64,000 nt of DNA from an uncultured Clostridium sp. (lineage in GTDB: Bacteria; Bacillota; Clostridia; TANB77; CAG-508), in contig CAMCQH010000003.1 of assembly GCA_945877035.1 (NCBI GenBank), forward strand, positions 326 to 64,325. Reading direction: 5' to 3'. The translations under genes were made by a program, and so were the position numbers. This document shows positions 1 through 46,573 of the stretch, one piece after another. The notes under the pieces were generated by a model. It saw only the letters and a program-made list of their open reading frames with translations. It made no database searches and was not told where the DNA came from. Each line of letters begins with the position of its first letter. Within the stretch, counting starts at the first letter, position 1.

Positions 1-1377
1 AAACTTGCATTTAGTTTCATCATAGTTTTTTATTAAGGCATCATATTCTTTTTTATATTTTTCTTGATTTTGTGCTACTCTAGAATTTATATCGATTAGG
101 TCTTGTATTTTTTCTACTTGTTCCGTTAGGCTATTTTCCAATTTTTCTTTTTCTTCTAGCAATTCTTTTTTGTTACATATCTTATCAAGTACTTTTTCTA
201 AATTTGAAATTATCTCATCTTTACTTTCAATTAATATATTAACTACATTTACAAATCTGCTTTCGATATCTTCAGACCTTATTGCGGGTGTTTTACATTT
301 CTCTTTTCCAGAGTATTTACTATTGCATTGATACATTACCCTTCTATACTTATCATTTGAATGCCATACTTTAGCTCCATAGCTACCACCACATTCTCCA
401 CATCTAATCTTCGCTGTCAAAATATCAGTTCCACTATACTTACCCTTAAGCATTAATCGTCTATCAATTTCTAATCTTACCATCTCAAATACATCTGGTT
501 CTATAATCGCTGGATGGTTATTTTCAACATAGTATTGTTGTACCTCTCCATTATTTATTTTTTGCTTTTTAGTTAAGAAATCAACAGTATAATGCTTTTG
601 AAGTAACGCATCTCCTTTATATTTTTCGTTGGTAAGAATACTCCTAACAGTTGTAGCATACCATTTTTGTTTATGTCCTGGAGTCTCTATTCCATCATTT
701 GTTAGTCCCTTTGCAATAGCAACAGATGATGACCCTGATAAAAATTCACGATATATCCTTTTTACAATCATTGCTTGTTCTTCATCAATAACAAGGTTTC
801 CATCTTCTCCTTTTTTATAGCCTAGGAAATTATTAAATGGCACTGATACTTTACCATCGGCAAATCTTTTCCTGTGTCCCCATTTGACATTCTCTGATAT
901 GGATCTACTTTCTTCTTGAGCTAATGAACTCATTATTGTAAGCAACAATTCTCCCTTACCATCAAATGTCCAGATGTTTTCTTTTTCAAAATAACATTCG
1001 CACCCTATATCTTTTAGTTTTCTTATGGTTGTTAAGCTATCTACAGTATTTCTAGCAAATCTTGAAACAGACTTTGTGATGATTAAATCAATGTTACCAT
1101 CTAATGCCGATTTAACCATTTTATTAAACCCTTCACGATGTTTGGTTGAAGTTCCACTTATTCCTTCATCAGTATAAACATCTACAAATTCCCAATCATC
1201 TCTTGATTTTATATAATTGGTATAATAATCGACCTGTGCCTCATAACTTGTTAATTGTTCTTCTTGGTCTGTTGAAACTCTGGCATATGCAGCAACTCTT
1301 CTCTTTTTTACTATTCCAACCTGATTTGTAGATTGCTTATTTAGTAATGCTGGTATCGTTGTTACTTTTTTTGTCAT
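1..1377 (-). CDS. Large serine recombinase, C-terminus cut by window edge
   Basis: Absent from the ORF track because it runs off the window. My translation from ATG 1377 reads MTKKVTTIPALLNKQSTNQVGIVKKRRVAAYARVSTDQEEQLTSYEAQVDYY...TKSVSRFARNTVDSL (resolvase catalytic domain), then a recombinase domain and a Cys-rich region (CGECGGSYG...YQCNSK). It overlaps the stop of the upstream recombinase by 41 nt. Confidence 0.85.
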   Translation of the reverse strand, partial: MTKKVTTIPALLNKQSTNQVGIVKKRRVAAYARVSTDQEEQLTSYEAQVDYYTNYIKSRDDWEFVDVYTDEGISGTSTKHREGFNKMVKSALDGNIDLIITKSVSRFARNTVDSLTTIRKLKDIGCECYFEKENIWTFDGKGELLLTIMSSLAQEESRSISENVKWGHRKRFADGKVSVPFNNFLGYKKGEDGNLVIDEEQAMIVKRIYREFLSGSSSVAIAKGLTNDGIETPGHKQKWYATTVRSILTNEKYKGDALLQKHYTVDFLTKKQKINNGEVQQYYVENNHPAIIEPDVFEMVRLEIDRRLMLKGKYSGTDILTAKIRCGECGGSYGAKVWHSNDKYRRVMYQCNSKYSGKEKCKTPAIRSEDIESRFVNVVNILIESKDEIISNLEKVLDKICNKKELLEEKEKLENSLTEQVEKIQDLIDINSRVAQNQEKYKKEYDALIKNYDETKCKF

Positions 1378-2701
1378 TTTTCATCCTCCAACTCTTTTTT
1401 AATTTTTCTCCACGTTCTCTTCTTTTTTCTTCTGTCCAATATTCTTTTCTAGCATTGTATTCCCATTTCTCACTTATTATCTTTCCATCATTAAAATGAA
1501 ATTCTAGCAAGTCATCACCAATTACTATTACTTTTTTTATTTGTTCGTCAAATGCATTTGAGTCAAATTCATCTAATCCAAGAACTTTAGCTGACACTCT
1601 CTTTAATGCAATCTCATTTATAGTTTTTCCAGGACAGGCTTTTGATCCACCTGTTAATCTTGTACCACAAGTCCATATATGAGCTTTTATTCCATCAGAA
1701 TTTTTAGACCTTGAATTTCTCATATAATTCTTACCGCATATTGGACATTTTACTCTGCAAGAAAAACAAGTTATATTCTTACCAAAATTAGCTCTCTGAC
1801 CTTCTGCTTTTCTTCTTTTTCTTTCTTCTTGAACTTGAATAAACATCTCCATAGGAATTATAGCTTCGTGATTATTCTCTACATAGTATTTTGGAAGTTC
1901 TCCATTGTTTTTTACTTTTCTTCTTACCAATGGATTTGGTGTATAGGATTTTTGTAATAATAAATTTCCAGTATAAGTTATATTTAATAGCATATCTCTA
2001 ATAGTTCCAATATTAAAATATCCTCCATTAGTTGCAATCACACCCATCTCTTTAAGTTCTATCTCCATTCTTTCTGCTGATACTTTATTTAAATACATTT
2101 GAAATATGAGCTTTACTATTTTTGCTTCTTCAGGTTCTATTACTAAATTATCACCATCCCAACGATACCCATATATCTTATATCTGCATTGTGGTTTCCC
2201 ACTTTCAAATTTCTTTTTTATAGCCCATTTAATATTGTTACTTGTTGATATAACCTCTTCTTGAGCAAATGAAGCTAGTATTGAAAGCATAAGTTCTCCA
2301 TCCCCTGTTAAGGAACTGATGCCTTCTTTTTCAAATCTAACTTCAATACCTAATTCTTTTAAGTGCCTTACTACATTTAAAAGGTCAACTGTATTTCTAG
2401 CAAATCTTGAAATAGATTTTGTAAGAATAATATCAATCTTGCCTTCTTCACAATCTTGTAATAACCTTTTAAAATCATTACGTTTTTCAATTCCAGTACC
2501 ACTTATACCTAAATCAGAATAAACACCTGCAAATTCCCACTCTGGATTTTTTTGAATTAATTCATTGTAGTAACTAACTTGAGCAGAATAAGAATGTAAT
2601 GTTCTTCCTCTTTCAACTGATACTCTTGCATAAGCAGCCACTCTTTTAAGTTTAGGAAGTTCTATGTTTTTTGTTTCTAATTTTGTTATTGTACGCATCA
2701 T
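1337..2701 (-). CDS. Large serine recombinase
   Basis: 454 aa. N-terminal resolvase domain (RVAAYARVSVERGRTLHSYSAQ...TKSISRFARNTVDLL), recombinase domain and zinc-ribbon-like cysteines (CFSCRVKCPICGKNY...WTCG). Confidence 0.9.
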   Translation of the reverse strand: MMRTITKLETKNIELPKLKRVAAYARVSVERGRTLHSYSAQVSYYNELIQKNPEWEFAGVYSDLGISGTGIEKRNDFKRLLQDCEEGKIDIILTKSISRFARNTVDLLNVVRHLKELGIEVRFEKEGISSLTGDGELMLSILASFAQEEVISTSNNIKWAIKKKFESGKPQCRYKIYGYRWDGDNLVIEPEEAKIVKLIFQMYLNKVSAERMEIELKEMGVIATNGGYFNIGTIRDMLLNITYTGNLLLQKSYTPNPLVRRKVKNNGELPKYYVENNHEAIIPMEMFIQVQEERKRRKAEGQRANFGKNITCFSCRVKCPICGKNYMRNSRSKNSDGIKAHIWTCGTRLTGGSKACPGKTINEIALKRVSAKVLGLDEFDSNAFDEQIKKVIVIGDDLLEFHFNDGKIISEKWEYNARKEYWTEEKRRERGEKLKKSWRMKNDKKSNNDTSITK

Positions 2702-21903: not shown

Positions 21904-21940
21904 CTTTCTTTATATAAGATTTCCTCTTTTTGTTATGTAT

Positions 21941-21972
21941 ATATATCACTCTAAAAGGCATATATATCAAGT
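21941..21972 (-). promoter_or_regulatory. Copy B of bipartite promoter-like motif
   Basis: Minus-strand GACTTGATATATATGCCTTTTAGAGTGATATATAT, about 38 nt upstream of amidoligase start 21903. Confidence 0.5.
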
Positions 21973-22221: not shown

Positions 22222-22243
22222 ACCGCTTACCTCCTTGTATTAC

Positions 22244-22275
22244 ATATATCACTCTAAAATACAGTAATATCAAGT
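22244..22275 (-). promoter_or_regulatory. Copy C of bipartite promoter-like motif
   Basis: Minus-strand ATACTTGATATTACTGTATTTTAGAGTGATATATGT, about 23 nt upstream of start 22221. Confidence 0.5.
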
Positions 22276-34993: not shown

Positions 34994-35530
34994 TTAACCT
35001 CTCTTGAAATTTTCTTTTATAAACTTCAAAATTTTTTCTTTGTGCTTATGCACACTTGGTATAGAAGTTCCCATAATTGCGGCTACTTCAGTAAGTGAAT
35101 AACCTTCTAGGAAATGAAGTTCATATACTCTTTGTTGTTTTTCAGTCATCATTGAAACAACTTCTCTTAATCTATCTACTTCATCTGATGTATCTTCTAC
35201 AGCAGTTGTATTATCTGCAAGATAGATACACTTATCTTGGTTTCCATCTTCGTCAAAGATTGAATCAATAGATATGTTCCATATTTCTTGATACTTTTCG
35301 CCTGGATGTCTCTCTTCCCATTCCTTAATATCTTGTTTTTCTTTTTCAGATATGGGTCTATGCCAATTCTTATGATTGTAATAAACTTCTGAGTCATCCA
35401 AAGAATGTAGCTTCTTGATGAACTCCTCTGTTACTCCATCCTCTCCTGTCTTGATTGTGATTTTAGTTTCATCGTCAAAGATGTAGGTATAAGTACCTCT
35501 ATTTTCTTGTTTTGTTTTATGACTTTTCAT
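34994..35530 (-). CDS. Sigma-70 family (region 4) protein, first gene of the phage minus-strand block
   Basis: QQRVYELHFLEGYSLTEVAAIMGTSIPSVHKHKEKI. RBS AAGGAAGGGAGG. Confidence 0.7.
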   Translation of the reverse strand: MKSHKTKQENRGTYTYIFDDETKITIKTGEDGVTEEFIKKLHSLDDSEVYYNHKNWHRPISEKEKQDIKEWEERHPGEKYQEIWNISIDSIFDEDGNQDKCIYLADNTTAVEDTSDEVDRLREVVSMMTEKQQRVYELHFLEGYSLTEVAAIMGTSIPSVHKHKEKILKFIKENFKRG

Positions 35531-35580: not shown

Positions 35581-35615
35581 AAAAAAGAGTCCGTGCTTTT
35601 TTAGTACACGGACTC
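35581..35615 (-). terminator. Intrinsic-terminator-like hairpin in the leader of the sigma-like gene
   Basis: Stem GAGTCCGTG (35587-35595) pairs with CACGGACTC (35607-35615). It is followed on the minus strand by TTTTTT (plus A6, 35581-35586). Confidence 0.55.
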
Positions 35616-35836
35616 CTACTGCCTAATTTAGGGTGCAATAAAGAGAGGGTACTAAAAATAAGCATTCTTACCTTTATGGGTATTAAATAGCTTTTATTCG
35701 TATCCTTCTGCCCTATTGCAAACTCAGGCATCAAAACATTAAATTTATAAAAAGCAAAAAGTTATTCGTTTTTGTATTTTTTTTATGCGATTGCATATTT
35801 TTTTTATACAAAAGCATGGTTTTCTTCATAATTTTC

Positions 35837-35845
35837 TGATATAAT
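35837..35845 (+). promoter_or_regulatory. Extended -10 promoter candidate for the plus-strand island operon
   Basis: TGATATAAT, about 155 nt upstream of ATG 36000. The -35 is weak. Confidence 0.4.
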
Positions 35846-35999
35846 ATTTTCATCAATTTAAAAATCATATCGTGCTATCTATGAAGTACTTCTTTCTGCT
35901 TTTTACACTTAAGATTTTAACAGCTTTGCTATAAAATCTCTGGTAGTCATGGGTAGTCTTCGGGATGTATCGGTAAAACAAGAAATGAGGGGATTATTA

Positions 36000-36821
36000 A
36001 TGACTTTTTCAATATTTGCTAATGTATTAAAACCAATCATTGGTGGTTCAGACAACACAGTTGAATTTACTAGAAAACTCTTTATAGCTATGATTGGAGA
36101 AGATAACTCTACAGTAATTGAAAATAAATCAGATGATAGTTTTAAAGCCTATTACAATGGAAGATCAACAATAAATGGAATAGCTAGAGAAATATCTCCT
36201 GTTGCTGACCTAGAGAACTTTGTATCCTTCCTTGATAATTTTGGAGACTCAGTTTCAGAGAAATTTTGTGAAGCCTTTTCTGGATACATTAATGAAATAG
36301 ACTTACAAAATGTTAATTACAAAATAGCAAGTTGCTTTGATGAAATCATAAAAAAAGCAGCAGCAACTCAAAGAAAAAGCCCATCTAATAAAGATGAGCA
36401 ACTTAATATTCCTATTGAGCATACTGCTACTAGCAATCCTTATACGGAAAAGGATAATAAATTACTTACTGAATTTAATTCAGATTATGAAGAAATCGTG
36501 CTTACTTTAATTGGTGGAGATTATGCATCCCATCTAGTAGATATGAGTATTCCTAACCAGATTAAAAAACTATATCAGGAGAAATGGAAAGAAAAATCTA
36601 ATGATTTTATAAATCCAACACTAAAATCAGATATATTTGGAATTTTAGGAACTCTAGATGAATTAAGTACAAGTTTCATTTCATGTAATTCAAATACAAG
36701 TGTAATCAAAAGTCAAAGAATAAAAATAAGAAATTTATATGTTAAACTTCATCCAGAAAAATATGACAAAAACATCCCATATGATGTTTTGTTAGATGAT
36801 TGGAATGATAGTGATTTTTAG
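36000..36821 (+). CDS. Uncharacterised 273-aa protein (partner of the helicase fusion)
   Basis: Start set at ATG 36000, behind GAGGGGA. No motif or family recognised. 15-nt gap to the next gene. Confidence 0.6.
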   Translation: MTFSIFANVLKPIIGGSDNTVEFTRKLFIAMIGEDNSTVIENKSDDSFKAYYNGRSTINGIAREISPVADLENFVSFLDNFGDSVSEKFCEAFSGYINEIDLQNVNYKIASCFDEIIKKAAATQRKSPSNKDEQLNIPIEHTATSNPYTEKDNKLLTEFNSDYEEIVLTLIGGDYASHLVDMSIPNQIKKLYQEKWKEKSNDFINPTLKSDIFGILGTLDELSTSFISCNSNTSVIKSQRIKIRNLYVKLHPEKYDKNIPYDVLLDDWNDSDF

Positions 36822-36836
36822 AAAGGATGATAATAA

Positions 36837-39596
36837 ATGCCAACAATTGATAGTTCTATAAAAAGAATAGATAGTGTTATATGTAGACACTTAGATGAAA
36901 TCGAAGACTCTTCTCGTGGTGCAATTTCACAAGATATATTAGAACAACTAATAAAATTCATTAATCATGTAATGCTTAAGTTTTATGCCAATGGCAAAGA
37001 AATCGACATTAACGAAGAAAATTTAACTAAGGCAATCGAGTATTGCCAAGTAAATAGTGACCTATATACCCTATATAAGTTTCGTAACTATCTACAAGTT
37101 GTAACTACGCAATACACTTTAGATGAAGATGGATCAGAACGTTTAATGTTAAAGTATTATCAGTACTTACTAGAAACCAAAAATCTTCTTAGTCAACACT
37201 TTGGTATTGAGGTACTGCATAATTTAGATAAATTTCCTTTACATTTAGATGATACCCTACAGGAATACTATAAAAAAATTGCAGAAAAAATAGAACATCA
37301 TCCTGCAGCATTACACACAGATAGTAAAGATAAATATTATATCCAAAAAATCAAACCTCTATTTGTAGATAGAAAGATATATTATGAAGTTACATTTACT
37401 CCAATTGATGACAGGAAGAACAAATCTAAGACAAACAGAGTTATTGCTTTTACAAAACTTCCAGTCAAAAGTAACTATGCATCTAAATTTCACCTTATAA
37501 ATGAAACTATCGAAATATTAGGCAAAACAATGCCTATCATCGTTATTGATGGTTGGGAAGTTTCAATAAGAGATTGTGAATTTCAAAATTTCATATCAAT
37601 AATAAATGGAGATAAAATAAAAGTAGGTTATCCAGAACAACGATTAATTTGTGAATTTCTTACTAAAACAAAATACACCTTAAATAATCTAATAGACTTT
37701 CCAGATGCTGCATATAATGATATTACTCTCAAATGGAAAAGTAGCCTTAAAAATCCTATATTTATTCCAATATTAGATTATTGCAGAAATTTAATATTAA
37801 GTGGCAAGAGTGGAAAAAATATATTAAGATACCTACTTTATAATATGAATAATGTCATAATAAAAAGTCAATATTCGTCAGGATACTATAGTAAATATTA
37901 TGAAGAATGGGTTAAAGCTCCAAACAGCTATCTATCTAACTTGTATTTAGATATTGGTAGTAAGCAATTTGATGACTTACCATTTAATCGCTCTCCTCTT
38001 GGACATAATCCAAAATTATCTGCAATATTTGAGTGCATTCCTTGTAATGGTAATCGTCATGAATTATTTGCAAGATTTATAGAAAATAATACAGAAGGCA
38101 AAGGACAATTATTCACTGATATTAGTGAATTGGAAAATTACCCTGATTATCCAGAGCTTATAAAAACATATAATGAAAATCTTTACTCTGGTCATAGACC
38201 TGAAGGTGATTTAATGCTAGAACATAATCAAGTATTTATAAATGATTATAAGCTAGATACTTGCACCATAATTAAAAGATTACAAGAATTAGCTGAATCT
38301 GGTATAGAAAACTATAGTGCTGATGTTGACTTCTGGCTACTCTTTGATGGTTATGAAATTGATTGTGATGAAAAGAAAGATATTATTAGACAGATATTTT
38401 CTGATTCAAAAGTTGGTGTAATATATGGTTCTGCCGGTGTAGGAAAATCCACATTAATAAACCATGTTTCACACTTTCTAAACGATGAGCCTAAACTATA
38501 TTTAACTCAAACAAATCCAGCAAAAGAAAACTTGATTAGAAAAATTGATGCAGAAAATACTACTTTTTCTACAATCGAAAGTTTTAAGCACCAAACTTCT
38601 TCAATTGATTATAAATTATTGGTCATTGATGAATGTAGTACTGTCAGCAATAAAGATATGGTTGAAATACTACAAAAAGCAAATTTTGAAATGCTTTTAT
38701 TAGTTGGAGATACTTATCAAATTGATGCAATACAATTTGGAAACTGGTTCTCAGTACTAAAGGCGTTCTTACCCGAAACTGCTGTTTTTGAACTAAAAAA
38801 ACCTCATAGAACTAAAAACAAACATCTGCTAGAGCTTTGGGATAAAGTTAGATGCATGGATGATACAGCTAAGGAAGTAATTGAAAGAGAAAGTTATTCT
38901 CTAAAAGTAGATGAAACATTACTTTCTTCACTTGAACCTGGCGAGGCAATTCTATGCCTTAATTATGATGGACTATACGGTATAAATAATATTAATAGGT
39001 TCTTGCAAGAAAGTAATCCAAACCCAGCAGTTACTTGGGATGTTCAACAATATAAAGTTGGCGATCCTATACTATTTCTTGATTCAGATAGATTTAGACC
39101 AGTCATATATAACAATATGAAAGGAATAATCCGTGACGTAAAAGTCGTTGATGTAGATACCCCTACTGAACGCATCCGATTTGATATTGAAATTCCTAAA
39201 TTAATATATGAAAGAGATACGTTTGGTACAGGTCTTGACCTTCTTGAAAATAATGAGGAAGAAGAGAAATCTCTTATTAGATTTTATGTACGTAAACTTA
39301 AAAGTGCTGATGAAGAAGGAGAAGATTTTGGAACTATAGTTCCATTTCAAGTTGCTTATGCAGTTTCCATACATAAAGCACAAGGATTAGAGTTTGAATC
39401 CGTCAAAATAGTAGTAACTGATGAAGTTGAGGAATTAGTAACGCATAATGTTTTCTATACTGCTATAACAAGAGCAAGAGAAAAACTAAAAATCTACTGG
39501 ACACCAGAAGTAGAAGAAAAAGTTATAAATAGAATTAAACCTAGGGACATAAGTAAAGATGTTGAAATTTTAAAAAACTATATTGATAAAAAATAA
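36837..39596 (+). CDS. 919-aa protein: about 530-aa uncharacterised N-terminal region + RecD/Dda-like SF1B helicase
   Basis: Walker A VIYGSAGVGKSTLINH, Walker B LLVIDECSTVSN, motif III LLLVGDTYQIDAIQFGNWF, and C-terminal AYAVSIHKAQGLEFESVKIV...FYTAITRAREKLKIY (AAA_30/UvrD_C_2 type). I recognise nothing in the N-terminal half. Confidence 0.8.
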   Translation: MPTIDSSIKRIDSVICRHLDEIEDSSRGAISQDILEQLIKFINHVMLKFYANGKEIDINEENLTKAIEYCQVNSDLYTLYKFRNYLQVVTTQYTLDEDGSERLMLKYYQYLLETKNLLSQHFGIEVLHNLDKFPLHLDDTLQEYYKKIAEKIEHHPAALHTDSKDKYYIQKIKPLFVDRKIYYEVTFTPIDDRKNKSKTNRVIAFTKLPVKSNYASKFHLINETIEILGKTMPIIVIDGWEVSIRDCEFQNFISIINGDKIKVGYPEQRLICEFLTKTKYTLNNLIDFPDAAYNDITLKWKSSLKNPIFIPILDYCRNLILSGKSGKNILRYLLYNMNNVIIKSQYSSGYYSKYYEEWVKAPNSYLSNLYLDIGSKQFDDLPFNRSPLGHNPKLSAIFECIPCNGNRHELFARFIENNTEGKGQLFTDISELENYPDYPELIKTYNENLYSGHRPEGDLMLEHNQVFINDYKLDTCTIIKRLQELAESGIENYSADVDFWLLFDGYEIDCDEKKDIIRQIFSDSKVGVIYGSAGVGKSTLINHVSHFLNDEPKLYLTQTNPAKENLIRKIDAENTTFSTIESFKHQTSSIDYKLLVIDECSTVSNKDMVEILQKANFEMLLLVGDTYQIDAIQFGNWFSVLKAFLPETAVFELKKPHRTKNKHLLELWDKVRCMDDTAKEVIERESYSLKVDETLLSSLEPGEAILCLNYDGLYGINNINRFLQESNPNPAVTWDVQQYKVGDPILFLDSDRFRPVIYNNMKGIIRDVKVVDVDTPTERIRFDIEIPKLIYERDTFGTGLDLLENNEEEEKSLIRFYVRKLKSADEEGEDFGTIVPFQVAYAVSIHKAQGLEFESVKIVVTDEVEELVTHNVFYTAITRAREKLKIYWTPEVEEKVINRIKPRDISKDVEILKNYIDKK

Positions 39597-39608
39597 GGAG
39601 GTTAATTT

Positions 39609-39833
39609 ATGCATATTAGTTATAACAAATTATGGAAATTATTAATTGATAAAGGAATGAATAAGCAGGATTTAGGAAAAATTGCAAACATTAGTCCTGC
39701 GTCTATAGCAAAACTCGGAAAAGGTGCAAATGTGACCACAGATGTTCTTCTAAAAATATGTGAAGCATTAGAATGCAATCTTGAAGATATAATAGAAACA
39801 GTAAAAGAAAGTAATAATAAAGAGGAGGAATAA
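39609..39833 (+). CDS. Small XRE-type HTH protein (possible controller protein)
   Basis: 74 aa. MNKQDLGKIANISPASIAKLGKGANVTTDVLLKICEALECNLEDII. RBS AAGGAGG. Stop is 3 nt before the nuclease gene. Confidence 0.75.
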   Translation: MHISYNKLWKLLIDKGMNKQDLGKIANISPASIAKLGKGANVTTDVLLKICEALECNLEDIIETVKESNNKEEE

Positions 39834-39836
39834 AAA

Positions 39837-41234
39837 ATGGAAAATTTATGGCTTCTTACTGAAGAAAGACCAAAACCTTCAGTAGTTAAACAAATTATGG
39901 AAATGTATTGTAAAGATTTTAACGACACCTTAACAATAAACGAAGATATAAAAATCCGACCACTTATTGAAAACGGATATTTTAAATTTGTATATATTGT
40001 AGAAAATATGAGTGTCCAAAAAGCTAAAAACATTTATATAAAAACAGTAAGTGGTAGTTCTAGTTTCTTAGACTTCCTACTTTTTAAGCAAATAGAAGAA
40101 CCTAGTGAAGGTAGTTCTTCAGATAATTTAATCATGGCTATAGAAGAAACAAAAACAAGCGATGATGAATCAAGAAATACAGGTGTCTATCAAAGGGGAT
40201 CTAAATTTGTTTATATTACTCCTTATTACAAGGACGTTAAACTTTATATGTTATACAATGAAGAACTAGCAGCACGTGAAGAAAAAAAACCATCTGATAC
40301 AAGTATTTTTGGAACAAATATTTTATTAACTTTGGGTGTTACTGTTGTTGGAAAAGATACATCTAAATGGTTTAAGCCCTTTAAAAATATCGATGATTTA
40401 ATCAATTTCAAATCAAAAATGAGAAAGCCACCCGCTGGAAATGTTCCTATTACTATAACAAAATATGATGAACGAATTGAAATATCAGGTAGACTTGCAA
40501 AACCTGCCGATGCTGGCAATATAGGGCATGATCCAAACATTGGTGCTCTATCTATGATTTCCGCCTGTATAAGAAAACTAGGCTGGGATAAAGATATTAT
40601 TATTACACTACATGGTGTGTCTCAAAAATATGTAGATAGAACAAAAGGAAAAAATAAATTTCTATACATATGTAATATTTTAAATATGAAATTAGACCAA
40701 ATTCAAATGCCACCACAAGTAGCAATGCCAGAATTATACTGGCATTATGAGCGACACTCTGAAAAAATGGCTGATATTCTTCTTCATATGCAAACAATGT
40801 ATACAGGTATGAAAGGAATCTATGAAAATCATGCTGGTTGTGAAAGAGGATATTTCTTTTCAAAAACTGGTGCACAAATAACTTTGCCTAAAAAAGATAA
40901 AAATGGTATTAATCTTTACCTTCCAGATGTTGTTTTATACGATGAAAAAACGAATTATATAATCCTTGTAGAAGGAAAAATGCTATCAACTATAAACCAA
41001 GGAATTAAAGAAATTGAAAACTATGACAGTATTGAAAAAGAATATATCTATCCTAGTTATGGAGATGTAACAATAATGAGATGTTTAAGTATTTTTGGCG
41101 GCGATTGTAGAAAACTGCCTCACTCTAAAGTTCTTTTTTATCTTGCTAGTGATGGTCGTATAATAATAAATAATAATGCCCCAGAATGTATAAAATTTGC
41201 ATTTAATGGTTTAGGTGTAGTGTTTGATTCATAA
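39837..41234 (+). CDS. PD-(D/E)xK nuclease, candidate restriction endonuclease
   Basis: LYLPDVVLYDEKTNYIILVEGKML gives PD...ExK with typical spacing. RBS GAGGAGG. Converges on the methyltransferase operon. Confidence 0.6.
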   Translation: MENLWLLTEERPKPSVVKQIMEMYCKDFNDTLTINEDIKIRPLIENGYFKFVYIVENMSVQKAKNIYIKTVSGSSSFLDFLLFKQIEEPSEGSSSDNLIMAIEETKTSDDESRNTGVYQRGSKFVYITPYYKDVKLYMLYNEELAAREEKKPSDTSIFGTNILLTLGVTVVGKDTSKWFKPFKNIDDLINFKSKMRKPPAGNVPITITKYDERIEISGRLAKPADAGNIGHDPNIGALSMISACIRKLGWDKDIIITLHGVSQKYVDRTKGKNKFLYICNILNMKLDQIQMPPQVAMPELYWHYERHSEKMADILLHMQTMYTGMKGIYENHAGCERGYFFSKTGAQITLPKKDKNGINLYLPDVVLYDEKTNYIILVEGKMLSTINQGIKEIENYDSIEKEYIYPSYGDVTIMRCLSIFGGDCRKLPHSKVLFYLASDGRIIINNNAPECIKFAFNGLGVVFDS

Positions 41235-41239
41235 TAAAT

Positions 41240-41276
41240 AAAAGAGAAGCAGAATTTATATTTCTACTTCTCTTTT
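41240..41276. terminator. Bidirectional hairpin between convergent operons
   Basis: AAAAGAGAAG (41240-41249) is complementary to CTTCTCTTTT (41267-41276). Flanked by A/T runs. Confidence 0.6.
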
Positions 41277-42400
41277 CTAAATACTAATATATACTGGTGA
41301 ATTTGGTTTGAAACATAAGAGAACGGATATCCATAAGGAAAAAGTTTTGCTGTTTGGTCTGCCCATATTTTAAGCCCCTTATAATTTAATTCTTGAATAT
41401 CATTTAATGTTTCAACTATTTTTGCATGTAATAAATTAGTTTCTTTTTTATTTGGTTGTAAATCTTTTATAAAGATAACAACATATCCCTTCTTTTTTAC
41501 ATAAGGTAATATAAGCTGAATTGATTCTTTCAATTTATCATAAAAATTATATATATCTAGATTTCCAAAATCCTTATCACTACTTGTAAATGGCGTAGCA
41601 ACATTTCCATACACTTTTATATCCGCCCCTGTTTTTTTTCTACTCATCATATTTCCATATGGTGGGTCTATTAAAACAAGACTTATTTTTTCATTTCCAA
41701 GAAGCGATTGCATTTTATTGTCATCTGCTAGTATTTCCATACAGTCGCCTTCTACACAATCAAACACAGGAACACCCATTTCAGTAGCCGCTTCTTTATA
41801 TGCATCAATATATTTTCTTTCTAAGTCAATCCCTACTGCCCTTCTACTACACATCCCCGCTCCTAATAACGTTCCTCCAACTCCCATAAAATAATCAAAT
41901 ATAATCTCATTTTCTTTAGAAAAAAATTCAATTATTTCTTTCATTAATTTTGGTGGTTTAGGAGTTGGATGTATTTTTCTAATATGATGAGCACATGAGT
42001 CTTTACCATTAGTAGTGTAGTTAGTATTTATAACAGAATTTATAAAATGATTCCATTCTTTTCCAGATAAATCATTTAATGTATTATTAAGCTGATATCT
42101 TCTACCATCTTTAAGTATTACCATTTGTTTAGAATTTCCATATATTCTTGCATCTTCAATATTCTGCTTTACCCAAGAAGGTAACTTTGTAAAATCATAA
42201 TCAGGATACACATCAAAAAAAGGAATTCCTTCTTTGTATTGTTCATCTTCTTTTGGTTTTGAATTTTTTATTTTGTTGCGTATATATTTATTTACAATTT
42301 TTTTAATTTCTTTTATATCTTCTTCTGGGTTTTCAATACCAGCATCACTTAATTTTTTTATTATAACATCATTATTTATAACAGATTTTCTGTTTAGCAT
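41264..42400 (-). CDS. N6A/N4C DNA methyltransferase with N-terminal extension
   Basis: Motif I DYFMGVGGTLLGAG and motif IV LVLIDPPYGNM. Confidence 0.8.
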   Translation of the reverse strand: MLNRKSVINNDVIIKKLSDAGIENPEEDIKEIKKIVNKYIRNKIKNSKPKEDEQYKEGIPFFDVYPDYDFTKLPSWVKQNIEDARIYGNSKQMVILKDGRRYQLNNTLNDLSGKEWNHFINSVINTNYTTNGKDSCAHHIRKIHPTPKPPKLMKEIIEFFSKENEIIFDYFMGVGGTLLGAGMCSRRAVGIDLERKYIDAYKEAATEMGVPVFDCVEGDCMEILADDNKMQSLLGNEKISLVLIDPPYGNMMSRKKTGADIKVYGNVATPFTSSDKDFGNLDIYNFYDKLKESIQLILPYVKKKGYVVIFIKDLQPNKKETNLLHAKIVETLNDIQELNYKGLKIWADQTAKLFPYGYPFSYVSNQIHQYILVFRKEK

Positions 42401-43272
42401 TTATCATTTTCCTCACTTTCAAAGTTAGTTATAACAACTTCTACTGTTTTGGCATTTTTTTCTTTGAAATGATAACTACAATTTGCATATGATTTATCAA
42501 TATAGTGAACCTTATATTTTTTACTCCATTCAATTAATAAATCATTTGATAAGCCTTTATGGTACAGAACATTTGATAAAGCAAATTTTATTCCTCTAGA
42601 ATTCAACTCATCTAATAATCCAAGTAATTGTTTTTCTTCTACTTCAGTCCAATCTTTAAATCCTCTTTTTCCATCATTATAAGAACCAGTTGATATTAAG
42701 TATGGTGGATCACAATACACTAAATCTTTATCGCTTAAATCACTTAAATTAACACTTAAAAAGTCAGTATTATGAAATTCTACATTTTTTTCTTTTAAAG
42801 CCTTACAAAACTCTTTTAGATTTTTTTCTATTGAATCATTGTAGCTACTTCTTTCTTTTCCAAAAGGCGTATTAAATTTTTGACTATTGTTAAACCTTAT
42901 CTGATGATTAAATGCATAAAAAGTAAGAACTAAAAAATCCAATATATCTTTATTCTCATTATACCTCTCTCTTAATTTATTATATCCATCAGCATTTGAC
43001 TTTGATAGTTGAAACTCATTTATTATTTTATAAATATTATTAATTACCTCTTCTGTATTAGATTTTTCTAAAAATTCATATAATTCAATTAAATAATTAA
43101 TTTGGTCATTACATATTATTTTATTTGCATTTACATTAATTCCAACATTGAAACCTCCGGCAAACAAATCAACAAATGTGTTAATATTGTTAGGAAAAAT
43201 ATCAAAAAGTGAATTCAACAATTTGTATTTTCCACCTGTATAATTTAATGGACTTTTTATATACTTCATCAC
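42394..43272 (-). CDS. D12-class (Dam-like) DNA adenine methyltransferase
   Basis: PLNYTGGKYKLL, FVDLFAGGFNVG, VYCDPPYLIS, and C-terminal EVVITNF. Confidence 0.85.
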   Translation of the reverse strand: MMKYIKSPLNYTGGKYKLLNSLFDIFPNNINTFVDLFAGGFNVGINVNANKIICNDQINYLIELYEFLEKSNTEEVINNIYKIINEFQLSKSNADGYNKLRERYNENKDILDFLVLTFYAFNHQIRFNNSQKFNTPFGKERSSYNDSIEKNLKEFCKALKEKNVEFHNTDFLSVNLSDLSDKDLVYCDPPYLISTGSYNDGKRGFKDWTEVEEKQLLGLLDELNSRGIKFALSNVLYHKGLSNDLLIEWSKKYKVHYIDKSYANCSYHFKEKNAKTVEVVITNFESEENDKC

Positions 43273-43281
43273 GCATCTCCT

Positions 43282-44325
43282 TTATTTTTCAATATAAACA
43301 AGCATTTCTTTTAGTTCTTCTTTATCTCCTTGAGCTCTACTTTTATATCTTCTATATGGTATCCAATATATTTTAAATGTTTCAGCTTTACCATACTTTT
43401 TCATAATACTTTCTATGTCTTCAACCTTCATTAATCCATCGGTACTATAGCTTAATATAATATGCTTAAAATTTGCATTTTTTATTAATTCTTCAAATGC
43501 TTGAGTTACTTTAGTTTTTAAACAAAAATCTGATTTGTTATTTTCATATGGTCTTTGTGCAGTAACTCCCCTAACTTCAGGATAATCATATTTTGCTGCT
43601 GTCTCAAGGACATGATAGTTAGGAAGATATTGTCTTCCATTGTAAGGTGGATCTATATATAAAATATCCCCTTTTATTTTCTTTATTAATTCAACGCCAT
43701 CTTGATTATAGCATTTATTTTTCTTTCCATTTTGGTATACATCTAATCTATATAATTCGTACTTTTTATAAGACCTTCTCTCCCATTCTTTATGAAAAGC
43801 TCCATACGTTCCTGATGTATTTGATACAAAAGGAATTCCCTCAACTATACAAGCCACAAGATAAAAGTATTCATCGTCATCTATTAAGCCTTCATTATGC
43901 CAATCTTCAACGGTAATTCTTGCATAATCAATACGAAGTGCATTTTCATCATTTACGTACATTCTCCCACCTGTTGGTGCATAGTTATTTTGAAAAAATC
44001 TTTTTTCTTGAGGCAAGTTCTCCATATCTGAATTTGAAAGACTATTAAAATAATCTATTGGATCTTTTATATTCTTTATTTTATTCAATTTTTTAAATGC
44101 TGGTAACTTATCGTTTTGAATAGTACCTCTTTGTAGCACGTATGAAAAATATAATAAATCATTAGAGTATACTTGATACCATCTTTTAAAGTATCTGGCA
44201 ACTGTAGATGTCCCAGAAAATATATCACAGAATGATTCTGCACCTTTTACATTTTCATCTATTACTTGCTTAATATTATCAAGTAATAATGTTTTACAAC
44301 CTATAAATCTCATTATTTCACCCAC
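43282..44325 (-). CDS. D12-class (Dam-like) DNA adenine methyltransferase, second copy type
   Basis: FIGCKTLLL, FCDIFSGTSTVA, ILYIDPPYNGRQY. Confidence 0.8.
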   Translation of the reverse strand: MGEIMRFIGCKTLLLDNIKQVIDENVKGAESFCDIFSGTSTVARYFKRWYQVYSNDLLYFSYVLQRGTIQNDKLPAFKKLNKIKNIKDPIDYFNSLSNSDMENLPQEKRFFQNNYAPTGGRMYVNDENALRIDYARITVEDWHNEGLIDDDEYFYLVACIVEGIPFVSNTSGTYGAFHKEWERRSYKKYELYRLDVYQNGKKNKCYNQDGVELIKKIKGDILYIDPPYNGRQYLPNYHVLETAAKYDYPEVRGVTAQRPYENNKSDFCLKTKVTQAFEELIKNANFKHIILSYSTDGLMKVEDIESIMKKYGKAETFKIYWIPYRRYKSRAQGDKEELKEMLVYIEK

Positions 44326-44520
44326 CTATTCTAAAGCACTTTTACCACTTTTTACCCATTCATCAAGTTCTGTCTTTTTAAACTTCCACTGTTTTCCAAT
44401 TTTATGCGCAGGTAAATCATGTTTTAATTTTATCCAAGTTCTTAAAGTAACTACTTTTATGCCTAGATAAACTGCAGCTTCTTCAATACTTATGTAATTA
44501 TCTTCTAATATATTTTTCAT
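44326..44520 (-). CDS. Excisionase-family (HTH_17/MerR-like) DNA-binding protein
   Basis: ISIEEAAVYLGIKVVTLRTWIK...HKIGKQWKFKKTELDEWV. First gene of the methyltransferase operon, about 340 nt from the element end. Confidence 0.7.
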   Translation of the reverse strand: MKNILEDNYISIEEAAVYLGIKVVTLRTWIKLKHDLPAHKIGKQWKFKKTELDEWVKSGKSALE

Positions 44521-44559
44521 AACAACCTCACTTTTATATTTTCAAATACTCTATAACAC

Positions 44560-44588
44560 ATTATAACTTTTATATGTATAAAAAGCAA
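44560..44588 (-). promoter_or_regulatory. Sigma-A-type promoter of the HTH/methyltransferase operon
   Basis: Minus strand TTGCTT-17 nt-TATAAT, about 40 nt upstream of ATG 44520. Confidence 0.6.
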
Positions 44589-44592
44589 CTAA

Positions 44593-44633
44593 TTTGCTTA
44601 TATTTGCTTATATTTATTTATATTTGTTTATAT
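44593..44633. repeat. Four tandem 10-bp repeats (TTGCTTATAT-like)
   Basis: TTGCTTATAT TTGCTTATAT TTATTTATAT TTGTTTATAT G, immediately upstream of the -35 element. Confidence 0.8.
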
Positions 44634-44742
44634 GATAGCATACAATAATTTTTTCATTGAACTCCCCAATTAACTGCAACACATAAAAATTTCACTATTA
44701 AATAATAATACCTCACTTCTTGCTTTCTTTAAATCCAGGCAT

Positions 44743-44787
44743 AAAAAAAAGAGCCTTCTCTAAATCACTTTAAATTTAGAAAAGGCT
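44743..44787 (-). terminator. Intrinsic terminator at the element edge
   Basis: Minus strand AGCCTTTTCTAAAT-loop-ATTTAGAGAAGGCT (one mismatch), followed by T8 (plus A8, 44743-44750). Confidence 0.6.
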
Positions 44788-46573
44788 ATATTTCCTTTGA
44801 AATCAAAGGTTTTCTTTCAAATATCCCGATTATTCTTTGTATCATATTTGGAGTTGTTTGGTCAATAAAATGGATTTTTAGATTTTGTTGTTTTAGATTT
44901 ATGGCAAAAATAAAAAAAATGATAATTGCTAATATGTATTTTATTTTTGGTTTGCTTTGTCTTAATTTTATTTTCATTAAGGCCACTAAATTTTTTACTC
45001 TTATTTGCGTTTTATTTGGCTTTTTAGAAGAATAAATGTTGTAACTGAAAAATAATACTATTAGAAACAAATAATAGATTAAAATTGAAAATAAGCTTGG
45101 TGTTGCTAAATAAATTTTTGAAAATGGAAGTTTTCCAATATTTGATATGAAATTTAAAATTTTGATTCCTGCTGACATTACAGGTGAAATAATTTCTGCT
45201 ATTGGAACAATTAAGCTAGCTATTATTATGAATAAAAATCCTAAAATAACAATTGGTCCTATTGCAAAACTTAAAACTAAATTTGATATTAAAAAATAAG
45301 GATTAAAAGTATTTAAATTGTATAAAATTATTGGCAATATAGCTATTTGTACTGAAATTGAAACTGAAATGATTTCTTTTATCTTATCTAAATATTTTTG
45401 AATTTTAGGTTTTATTTTATATTTATATACTTTGTTTCTCACTTTAATATTTTTCAAAAATTTCAAAATGCTTTTATTAAAAATAACTATCCCGACTACT
45501 CCTCCATATGATAGTTGAAGGCCTAAATTTTGAATTAAAAATGGATTATAAATTAGAATTAAAAGCAATGATATAGAAATAGATGTGTATATATCATTTT
45601 TTCTATGAAGTAATTTTGAAAAAAGTAGTATAATTCCCATTATTCCTGCTCTTGTGATTGATGGTGAAAAGTTTGTTATAAACATATAAAGTATTAAAAT
45701 TATTATGTTCAAAATATTTGTATTTCTTTTTCCAATTAAGCCTTTAAAAATAAGATTTATTCCTAAAATCACATATGCTACATGCATTCCAGATACTGCT
45801 AAAATATGCGACATACTTGCATTTCTGAAATTTTCTTGTGTTTCTTCATCTATATCCTGTTTATTTCCTAGTATTAATCCTAATAAAATTGATGATGTTT
45901 CTTCTTTTAAAATCTTTTTTGTATTCGCAATTATTTTATTAGATATTTGATTTGAAATTTGAAAAAATTTATTTGCTTGTTTTTGACTTAAAACTTGTAC
46001 TTTTTCGCATCTTATTGTTCCATATATCTTTAGTTGTTTTAGATATTCTGAATAATCAAATCCTTTGTAATTTCTTTGTGTTTCTGGTTGGGTATAGCTT
46101 CCTGAAAATGTGATTTTGTCTCCATATTCTAGTTCTATATCTTTTTTCGTAGTTATATAAAATCGTAATTTCTGGTTGTTATAATTTACTTTTATCTTGT
46201 ATTTATTATAGTATTGCTTTTCTTGTTTTTCACTTATAATTGTTCCTGTTAAATTTAGATTCTCTTGAATTGATAAGTTGTTATAAATTTTTTCATAATT
46301 TTTGTTTTGGAAAATTACAATTGTATTTGAAATTATTGAACTAATCATTAATAGAATTATTACTTTTGAATTTAAATATATTTTGATATATCTTAAATAT
46401 CTTTTTATTGATAATAATTGAAATTTTTTTGTTTGTTTTTTATTACAAAATTTATAAATAAAATATGTTGCAATTACTGGAATATAAAATGAGACTATAC
46501 TAATTTTAAAGTATAGTCCCACTATTATACCTATTATATATCCTATAACTGCAATTAGAATTGGTCTTTTCAA
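44786..46573 (-). pseudogene. comEC: comEC 5' portion (DUF4131 + competence membrane domain), interrupted before the metallo-beta-lactamase domain
   Basis: 595 aa polytopic membrane protein. It ends ...LKIHFID, where ComEC proteins normally continue VGQGD. Instead it reads QTTPNMIQRIIGIFERKPLISKEI-stop, encoded by element DNA. Confidence 0.75.

Follow-up and report, generated by a model that had tools for sequence, protein, structure and literature searches.

We analysed a 64,000-nt stretch of DNA from an uncultured Clostridium sp. (GenBank assembly GCA_945877035.1, contig CAMCQH010000003.1, positions 326 to 64,325 of the forward strand), hereafter the window, in which a prophage carries two linked genes, A and B. 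A first-pass annotation, made from the letters alone, had proposed them as a candidate novel defence system composed of an unrecognisable protein and a helicase fusion. Both open reading frames (ORFs) lie on the plus strand, with 15 nt between the stop codon of A (36000..36821, 273 aa) and the start codon of B (36837..39596, 919 aa). Each has its own ribosome-binding site (RBS), GAGGGG for A and AAAGGA, 9 nt 5' of the start codon, for B, and this description of the pair was confirmed. Gene A had also been listed from an upstream ATG (35949..36821, 290 aa). The start in all A homologues corresponds to the internal ATG at 36000, with GAGGGG 8 nt before it, so the 273-aa reading is correct. Following B by 12 nt, a third plus-strand gene (39609..39833) encodes a 74-aa XRE/HTH_26 helix-turn-helix (HTH) protein (Pfam HTH_26, 2.5e-19), with a strong RBS, AAGGAGG.

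Gene B encodes a superfamily 1B (SF1B) helicase and was a full-length match to the PADLOC model PDLC05035, PDC-S53 (E=0, 1207.6 bits, aa 1-917 against model positions 1-895 of 900). It also matched phrog_325 (6.2e-147, aa 1-914 against profile positions 63-892 of 986), whose name 'Dda-like helicase' is a label only; T4 Dda aligns to the helicase core of B alone. PDCs are 145 candidates nominated by homologues embedded in type I restriction-modification (R-M), BREX or DISARM loci ("guilt-by-embedding"; Payne et al., 10.1101/2024.01.29.577857). They were added to PADLOC for future study, and the phage assays in that paper concerned HEC systems (10.1101/2024.01.29.577857). Our literature search found no text or supplement mentioning PDC-S53, and no paper on an SF1B/RecD-type defence system with the architecture of A and B.

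The helicase motifs quoted in the first-pass annotation (GSAGVGKS, VIDECS, VGDTYQ, SIHKAQGLEF and TAITRAR, with the Walker A motif GSAGVGKS at aa 531-538) are all present in the translation of B. Their confinement to its C-terminal part was borne out by the Pfam domains AAA_30, Viral_helicase1 and UvrD_C_2, restricted to aa 514-889, and by the NCBIfam P-loop/SF1 domains, restricted to aa ~514-889. The helicase core is assigned to 38397..39596 and the family-specific N-terminal region of ~520 aa to 36837..38396. In the AlphaFold2 (AF2) model (pLDDT, or predicted local distance difference test, 83; predicted template modelling score, pTM, 0.81), a helical bundle (aa 1-153) is followed by a five-stranded beta module (aa 167-242), a helical or mixed segment (aa 246-520) and the SF1B core. 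The top Foldseek matches of full-length B were RecD, RecD2, Pif1 and Dda, in a search dominated by the helicase core.

The N-terminal ~520 aa of B had no sequence relative in Pfam, NCBIfam or PDB. This region is kept across phyla, over which B is conserved at 47-56% identity, and it contains an invariant GHNP motif (aa 389-392). The weak Rx4H hint raised at first (RSPLGH) did not survive: the letters are present and form no recognised catalytic motif, and GHNP is an invariant family motif. An HNH-like reading of GHNP...CxxC...H (aa 389-408) was rejected, having no Pfam support and a predicted secondary structure that is not beta-beta-alpha, as was a PD-(D/E)xK reading of the beta module, in which no motif was found. 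Residues 347-358 of B (37875-37910) are a ~12-aa insertion (GYYSKYYEEWVKA) of low pLDDT, shared with Erysipelothrix phage phi1605 and absent from most relatives, including other A-linked ones.

Protein A was modelled as all-alpha (AF2, pLDDT 84), with two helical domains at aa 3-122 and 150-249. Its layout comprises a helical head (aa 1-128; 36000..36383), a disordered linker (aa 125-148), a helical C-domain (aa 135-249) and a tail (aa 250-273), with the C-domain and tail together spanning 36402..36821. The tail is acidic and, although its prediction is one of disorder, conserved better than any other part of the protein across the family (…RNLYVKLHP…PYDxFIDDWNDGEF; HP..PYDxxxDDWNDxxF), as expected of a docking peptide. 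Clade-specific conservation in B indicated no clear docking surface.

Gene A had no match in Pfam or NCBIfam. Against PDB, the sequence-profile search returned nothing meaningful for it and Foldseek no match below E=0.1, and Foldseek against BFVD retrieved uncharacterised homologues only. Its N-terminal half did match the PADLOC LmuA model PDLC03857 (2.3e-13, model positions 1-167 of 327); PADLOC gave no HamA match for the window protein. The earlier statement that these proteins match no domain therefore holds for A and the N-terminal region of B in Pfam, NCBIfam and PDB, and fails for B as a whole, through PDC-S53 and phrog_325, and for the N-terminal half of A, through LmuA. The profile and fold searches suggested at the time likewise left A without a PDB fold match, and placed B in PDC-S53 with a RecD/RecD2/Pif1/Dda fold.

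In a scan of one genome per species, relatives of B were found in at least 462 species of Bacillota, Patescibacteria, Bacteroidota, Proteobacteria, Desulfobacterota, Elusimicrobia and Synergistota, and in one archaeon. The hundreds of homologues of the A and B ORFs exclude chance. Most of the B family is without an A partner. Linkage was scored with local hidden Markov models (HMMs) built from A homologues, counting loci with intact upstream sequence: A lay directly upstream of B, at a gap of 11-57 nt, in 23/23 genome loci of one B clade, and was absent beside B in all other B loci scanned with these models. In a neighbour-joining tree, the A-linked helicases fell in one clade, where only two loci without A were nested (L019 and L026, both with B after HsdR).

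The same linkage was seen in viral contigs. Scanning IMG/VR for A homologues gave 66 loci: 34 encoded a C-domain protein with enough downstream sequence, 6 were cut by contig ends and 26 encoded the head only. B was immediately downstream in every one of the 34 untruncated C-domain loci and beside none of the 26 head-only proteins, so it is the C-domain, not the head, that goes with B. The co-occurrence of the pair, suggested initially as a check, was thus found throughout both sets (23/23 and 34/34), and relatives of B were found in defence islands. In addition, a small HTH protein of 67-78 aa, 70-90% identical to that of the window, directly follows B in ~19 genome loci, whatever comes after it. 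The conserved module is therefore A-B-HTH, of three genes and not the two originally annotated. Only two of 50,697 phage records had full-length B matches, both from temperate phages (phi1605 and Terrisporobacter TPDSL_ph1). Both have the A-B-HTH plus R-M arrangement, and they differ in their replication modules and R-M types, which argues that B is not a core phage function.

We found the one C-domain behind no fewer than three kinds of N-terminal head, which are unrelated to one another. Type 1 is the head of the window protein, and further kinds are type 2 (PYLCGG…ARK, ~220-260 aa) and type 3 (MTLCFAALIKVLKICAKPK…, ~170 aa). A type-3 protein 92.6% identical to P0220 (locus L062) and a type-2 protein 69.6% identical to P0255 (locus L024) are each encoded directly upstream of B. 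Variants of A of ~460 aa hold a degenerate second copy of the C-domain. A VRR_NUC match in the type-2 head (1.3e-3) was below the cut-off and was not taken as evidence. This head swapping in A is the modularity typical of conflict systems.

The type-1 head is a domain common to other immune proteins. An exhaustive profile search returned 807 matches to it, N-terminal in proteins whose lengths run from 170 to 800 aa. The long type-1-head proteins combine it with NACHT and SNaCT14, and bacterial NACHT proteins have their effector module in the N-terminal domain (10.1101/2022.07.19.500537). Another relative, P0253, joins the head to ABC-3C CTD6 in a layout of the Lamassu LmuA type, CTD6 being found in that relative only. 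Relatives of A matched PADLOC LmuA at up to 5.8e-18, and their type-1 head weakly matched PADLOC HamA1 (1.6e-8, over only positions 5-135 of a 436-position model). On IMG/VR prophage contigs, some head-only proteins were encoded in three-gene operons alongside an ABC ATPase of ~770 aa (Walker A GNNGTGKT, a CPYC hook, LSEGE and VVIDDP) and a protein of ~215 aa; these operons look like ABC-3C/Lamassu-like cassettes. Other head-only proteins had a Cys-rich extension and a ~555-aa partner. Prophages appear, then, to carry alternative cassettes with the same type-1 head. In the head-only loci L121-L137 and L139-L144, as for A in the window, the head gene is preceded by a short one on the minus strand.

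The surroundings of B are those of defence and R-M genes. Running PADLOC on 121 neighbours of stand-alone B genes identified LmuB, MADS, AriA, PtuA, type I R-M, AbiLi, GajA and HEC-01A, and large serine recombinases formed the largest recurrent neighbour cluster of B. At three loci (L026, L027 and L072), the order was HsdS-HsdR-(small genes)-B. We rejected Lamassu as a recurrent context of B, since the LmuB neighbours do not explain the ~400-740, ~1000, ~230, B pattern, which is type I R-M. Two of these loci, in distant genomes, encode a conserved 232-aa protein between HsdR and stand-alone B (L027:5262-5957 and L072:4641-5336). It had no match in PADLOC or PDB, and may serve as another partner for B in that clade.

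In the A clade, at least 10 of 19 genome loci have DNA methyltransferase (MTase) genes ≤6 kb downstream, as do the window, phi1605 and TPDSL_ph1. The R-M types adjoining the module vary (II C5, II N6, IIS and I). That of the window is type II; the module adjoins it within the same transcription unit, and is not embedded in a type I system. In phi1605, a paralogue of the module HTH with 59% identity (L001 13750-13989, minus strand) heads a convergent Dam-type IIS R-M operon. The resemblance suggests that the module HTH and the C-proteins of R-M systems are related, and the window HTH may also act as the C-protein of the adjacent restriction endonuclease (REase).

That type II REase gene (39837..41234, plus strand; PADLOC REase_II, 9.6e-59) is neighbouring cargo. 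It begins 3 nt 3' of the HTH gene and shares the transcription unit of A, B and HTH, with the same orientation, tight packing (successive gaps of 15, 12 and 3 nt) and an RBS before each gene. A candidate extended -10 promoter element for the unit (TGATATAAT; 35837..35845, plus strand) was read from the sequence, and a consensus promoter scan of the intergenic region upstream of A yielded weak matches only. Scanning the window downstream of the A promoter region revealed a single terminator-like hairpin (41240..41276), where the REase and MTase genes converge. The R-M partner of the REase consists of three DNA MTase genes (41264..44325, minus strand; profile matches), one N6_N4 (41264-42400) and two D12 (42394-43272 and 43282-44325). 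A single type II REase is thus accompanied by three MTases, of which the extra ones may protect the phage itself against other R-M systems.

Directly after the last MTase gene lies a 64-aa excisionase-like (Xis-like) HTH gene (44326-44520, minus strand), and beyond it comEC (44786-46573). The AT-rich gap of ~265 nt between these two (44521-44785), with short TTATATTTG(C/T)TTATAT repeats, is the probable attachment junction. On the other side, upstream of A and divergent from it on the minus strand, are phage replication genes: a sigma-like gene, a DUF2800/PD-(D/E)xK nuclease, PolA and a D5-like primase. Gene order on both sides therefore agrees with the first-pass placement of the pair between the phage early region and an R-M cluster near the attachment junction. 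The divergent intergenic region upstream of A contains a strong inverted repeat (35598-35627; GAGTCCGTG…CACGGACTC) followed by a T-run, which may be a terminator or operator. At the left edge of the window (1-2701, minus strand) are two tandem large serine recombinase genes. One occupies 1337-2701; the other starts near 1390 and runs off the left end, so the left border of the prophage lies outside the window. Three intergenic copies of a 35-nt motif (TATATATCACTCTAAA…ATATATCAAGT) are present in the prophage (2722-2756, 21938-21972 and 22241-22275), and these may be phage-specific promoter or operator sites, perhaps for the sigma-like factor at 34994-35530.

We compared the module with known systems. 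B is, from end to end, a PDC-S53 protein, and its relatives lie after type I R-M genes, the context on which PDCs were nominated. PADLOC defines PDC-S53 as a single gene, which describes the rest of the B family, whereas the window clade has an obligate upstream A and a conserved downstream HTH. The motor core of B shares its fold and all SF1B motifs with RecD2, RecD, T4 Dda and Pif1. It differs from them in its unique N-terminal region of ~520 aa and its genomic context, and scores far below the family cut-offs (94.9 bits v 500 for RecD2, TIGR01448; 91.5 v 310 for RecD, TIGR01447).

Hachiman offers an analogy for the roles of A and B, as it too encodes a small effector-carrying protein directly upstream of a large helicase sensor. 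However, HamB is an SF2 (DExH) helicase and B is SF1B, with no HamB match in PADLOC, and HamA is a DUF1837 PD-(D/E)xK nuclease, whereas A had neither DUF1837 nor a nuclease motif in Pfam and PADLOC searches. Lamassu and ABC-3C systems resemble the module in pairing, within the effector, a variable N-terminal head with a conserved C-terminal coupling domain, and the type-1 head both matches LmuA PDLC03857 and occurs fused to ABC-3C CTD6. In those systems the coupling domain is a CTD, and in A it is the C-domain, a different domain; the engine here is a helicase. Lamassu consists of an LmuA effector, an SMC-like ABC ATPase (LmuB) and LmuC, but the A-B operon has neither an ABC/SMC ATPase nor a middle component, and no window gene from 35949 to 44325 matched LmuB.

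Bacterial NACHT proteins with SNaCT14 carry the type-1 head in the N-terminal effector position, although there the head and NTPase form one polypeptide, whereas here two proteins are involved and no NACHT/STAND NTPase is present. Gabija combines GajA, an OLD-family ATPase-TOPRIM nuclease, with the UvrD-like helicase GajB; there is no GajA here, and GajB models match the P-loop region of B only (~1e-6). Nhi and Mokosh couple a Upf1-like helicase to a nuclease or phospholipase D (PLD), and we found no nuclease or PLD match in A or B with Pfam or PADLOC. By its defining features, the A-B module is therefore outside Hachiman, Lamassu, Gabija, Nhi and Mokosh; its domain order had been judged foreign to Hachiman, Gabija, Nhi, Mokosh and Shango at the outset, and that judgement stood.

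Taken together, we favour, with a probability of roughly 0.55, the interpretation that A-B-HTH makes up an immune module of three genes, which is borne by the prophage, expressed from the lysogen together with the R-M cassette and composed of a helicase sensor with an effector or adaptor. The N-terminal region and motor of B (SF1B, 5'-3', RecD/Dda-type) would sense foreign or aberrant DNA, such as single-stranded DNA tails, ends or replication intermediates. A would be the clade-specific partner, docking on B through its C-terminal domain and acidic tail, with its exchangeable head as the output, a non-enzymatic effector or adaptor that bacterial NACHT and ABC-3C/Lamassu proteins also carry at the effector position. 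Engagement of invader DNA by B would cause an ATP-driven conformational change or clustering, on which A would be released or oligomerised. The head would then act, aborting the infection or blocking replication, and the small HTH would autoregulate the operon. There are precedents for such an activation step: in Hachiman the HamA nuclease is held in check by the HamB helicase and then set free (PMC12278908), and in Lamassu LmuA is sequestered, then released and oligomerised (10.1101/2025.03.14.643221). By analogy, sequestration followed by liberation or oligomerisation is a plausible model for A. The gene structure, the family of B, its strict linkage to the C-domain of A, the swapping and sharing of heads, the conservation of the HTH and the surroundings of R-M and defence genes were observed here, whereas we infer the physical A-B complex, the sensing of DNA by B, the activation step, the activity of the head and the protection itself.

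Several points weigh against this interpretation. The head of A has no catalytic motif and no structural relative in PDB, and no nuclease or other killing domain was detected in B by Pfam, NCBIfam or PDB profile searches. It is the linkage of their genes that points to a physical complex of A and B. As most lineages have B but no A, the role of A may be that of a regulator or specificity factor and not of an effector. The HTH could be merely the C-protein of the R-M system in the window. Lastly, our literature search found no experimental protection data for PDC-S53 or the A-B pair.

We also considered whether A-B is an accessory of the R-M system, the helicase processing or spreading from restriction breaks in a RecBCD-like follow-up, or backing up R-M that phages inhibit, with the HTH as shared controller. 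The close packing of A, B, HTH and REase without a terminator until 41240 would fit, as would the R-M genes after the module in at least 10 of 19 genome loci and in the window, phi1605 and TPDSL_ph1, the stand-alone B genes after HsdR at L026, L027 and L072, and the HTH paralogue heading the phi1605 R-M operon. However, the adjoining R-M systems are of unrelated types (II C5, II N6, IIS and I), making a specific physical partnership unlikely, many B loci have no R-M nearby and only other defence genes or recombinases, and R-M loci are known to harbour unrelated defence genes as a general rule (10.1101/2024.01.29.577857). We consider this accessory role unlikely.

The weakest rival, and a very improbable one, is that B is a phage replication or recombination helicase and A its loader or accessory factor. 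The phrog_325 label and GenBank annotations read 'Dda-like helicase', the SF1B fold is common to T4 Dda, and B adjoins the early/replication region. Yet B lies on the side of the R-M and integration genes, its transcription diverges from that of the replication module, and the prophage itself encodes PolA, a D5-like primase-helicase, a nuclease and annealing functions. The rarity of B in phage records (two of 50,697, with differing replication modules) does not fit such a role either, most B family members are chromosomal, in defence or R-M contexts of many phyla, and the heads of A are common to NACHT and Lamassu proteins. Only a little less improbable is that the module serves the element against its host or rival elements, as a counter-defence or addiction (toxin-antitoxin-like) cassette that stabilises the prophage without sensing phage. 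The module does lie at element ends beside serine recombinases, the small HTH that closes the operon is reminiscent of an antitoxin or regulator, and head swapping is also typical of toxins. Against this, no domain resembling a toxin was detected, the large size of B and its conservation between phyla (47-56% identity) are unlike those of an addiction toxin, and the shared heads occur in sensor-NTPase immune architectures with relatives validated as anti-phage (10.1101/2022.07.19.500537).

For A-B-HTH, the proposal of a candidate defence system in prophage cargo was supported as a reasonable one by the PADLOC listing, the defence islands and type I R-M operons around relatives of B, the shared heads, the rarity of the module in sequenced phages and the position outside the replication module. 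Its novelty was not complete, as B is already PDC-S53 and phrog_325. What is new here is that A is an obligate, head-swapping partner, that its head recurs in immune proteins, that an HTH is conserved after B and that R-M genes are associated with the module. The head lacks a catalytic motif, is the sole candidate output in LmuA-like and A proteins, and accompanies a nuclease in HamA-like proteins, so it may be an adaptor or a non-enzymatic effector activated by oligomerisation. More tentatively, the head of A could be an immune output or adaptor domain that had escaped recognition, non-enzymatic and comparable in function to a death domain, which is swapped among four NTPase engines, with A-B-HTH a new helicase-triggered defence system. 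On that same tentative proposal the four engines would be the PDC-S53 helicase (through the C-domain), ABC-3C/Lamassu (through CTDs), NACHT (by fusion) and some HamA proteins.

If the immune interpretation is correct, a single-gene PADLOC candidate becomes a defined multi-gene system with a sensor, adaptor and regulator layout, and an SF1B helicase joins the motors that restrain exchangeable effectors (SF2 HamB, SMC-like LmuB and NACHT). The module would also give an experimental handle on a helical head that recurs in NACHT, Lamassu-type and Hachiman-type immune proteins. Should the tentative proposal for the head hold as well, study of A-B-HTH would show how this shared domain kills or signals. 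The R-M cassettes of varied type beside the module in gut Firmicute prophages make it a useful case for layered, phage-carried immunity.

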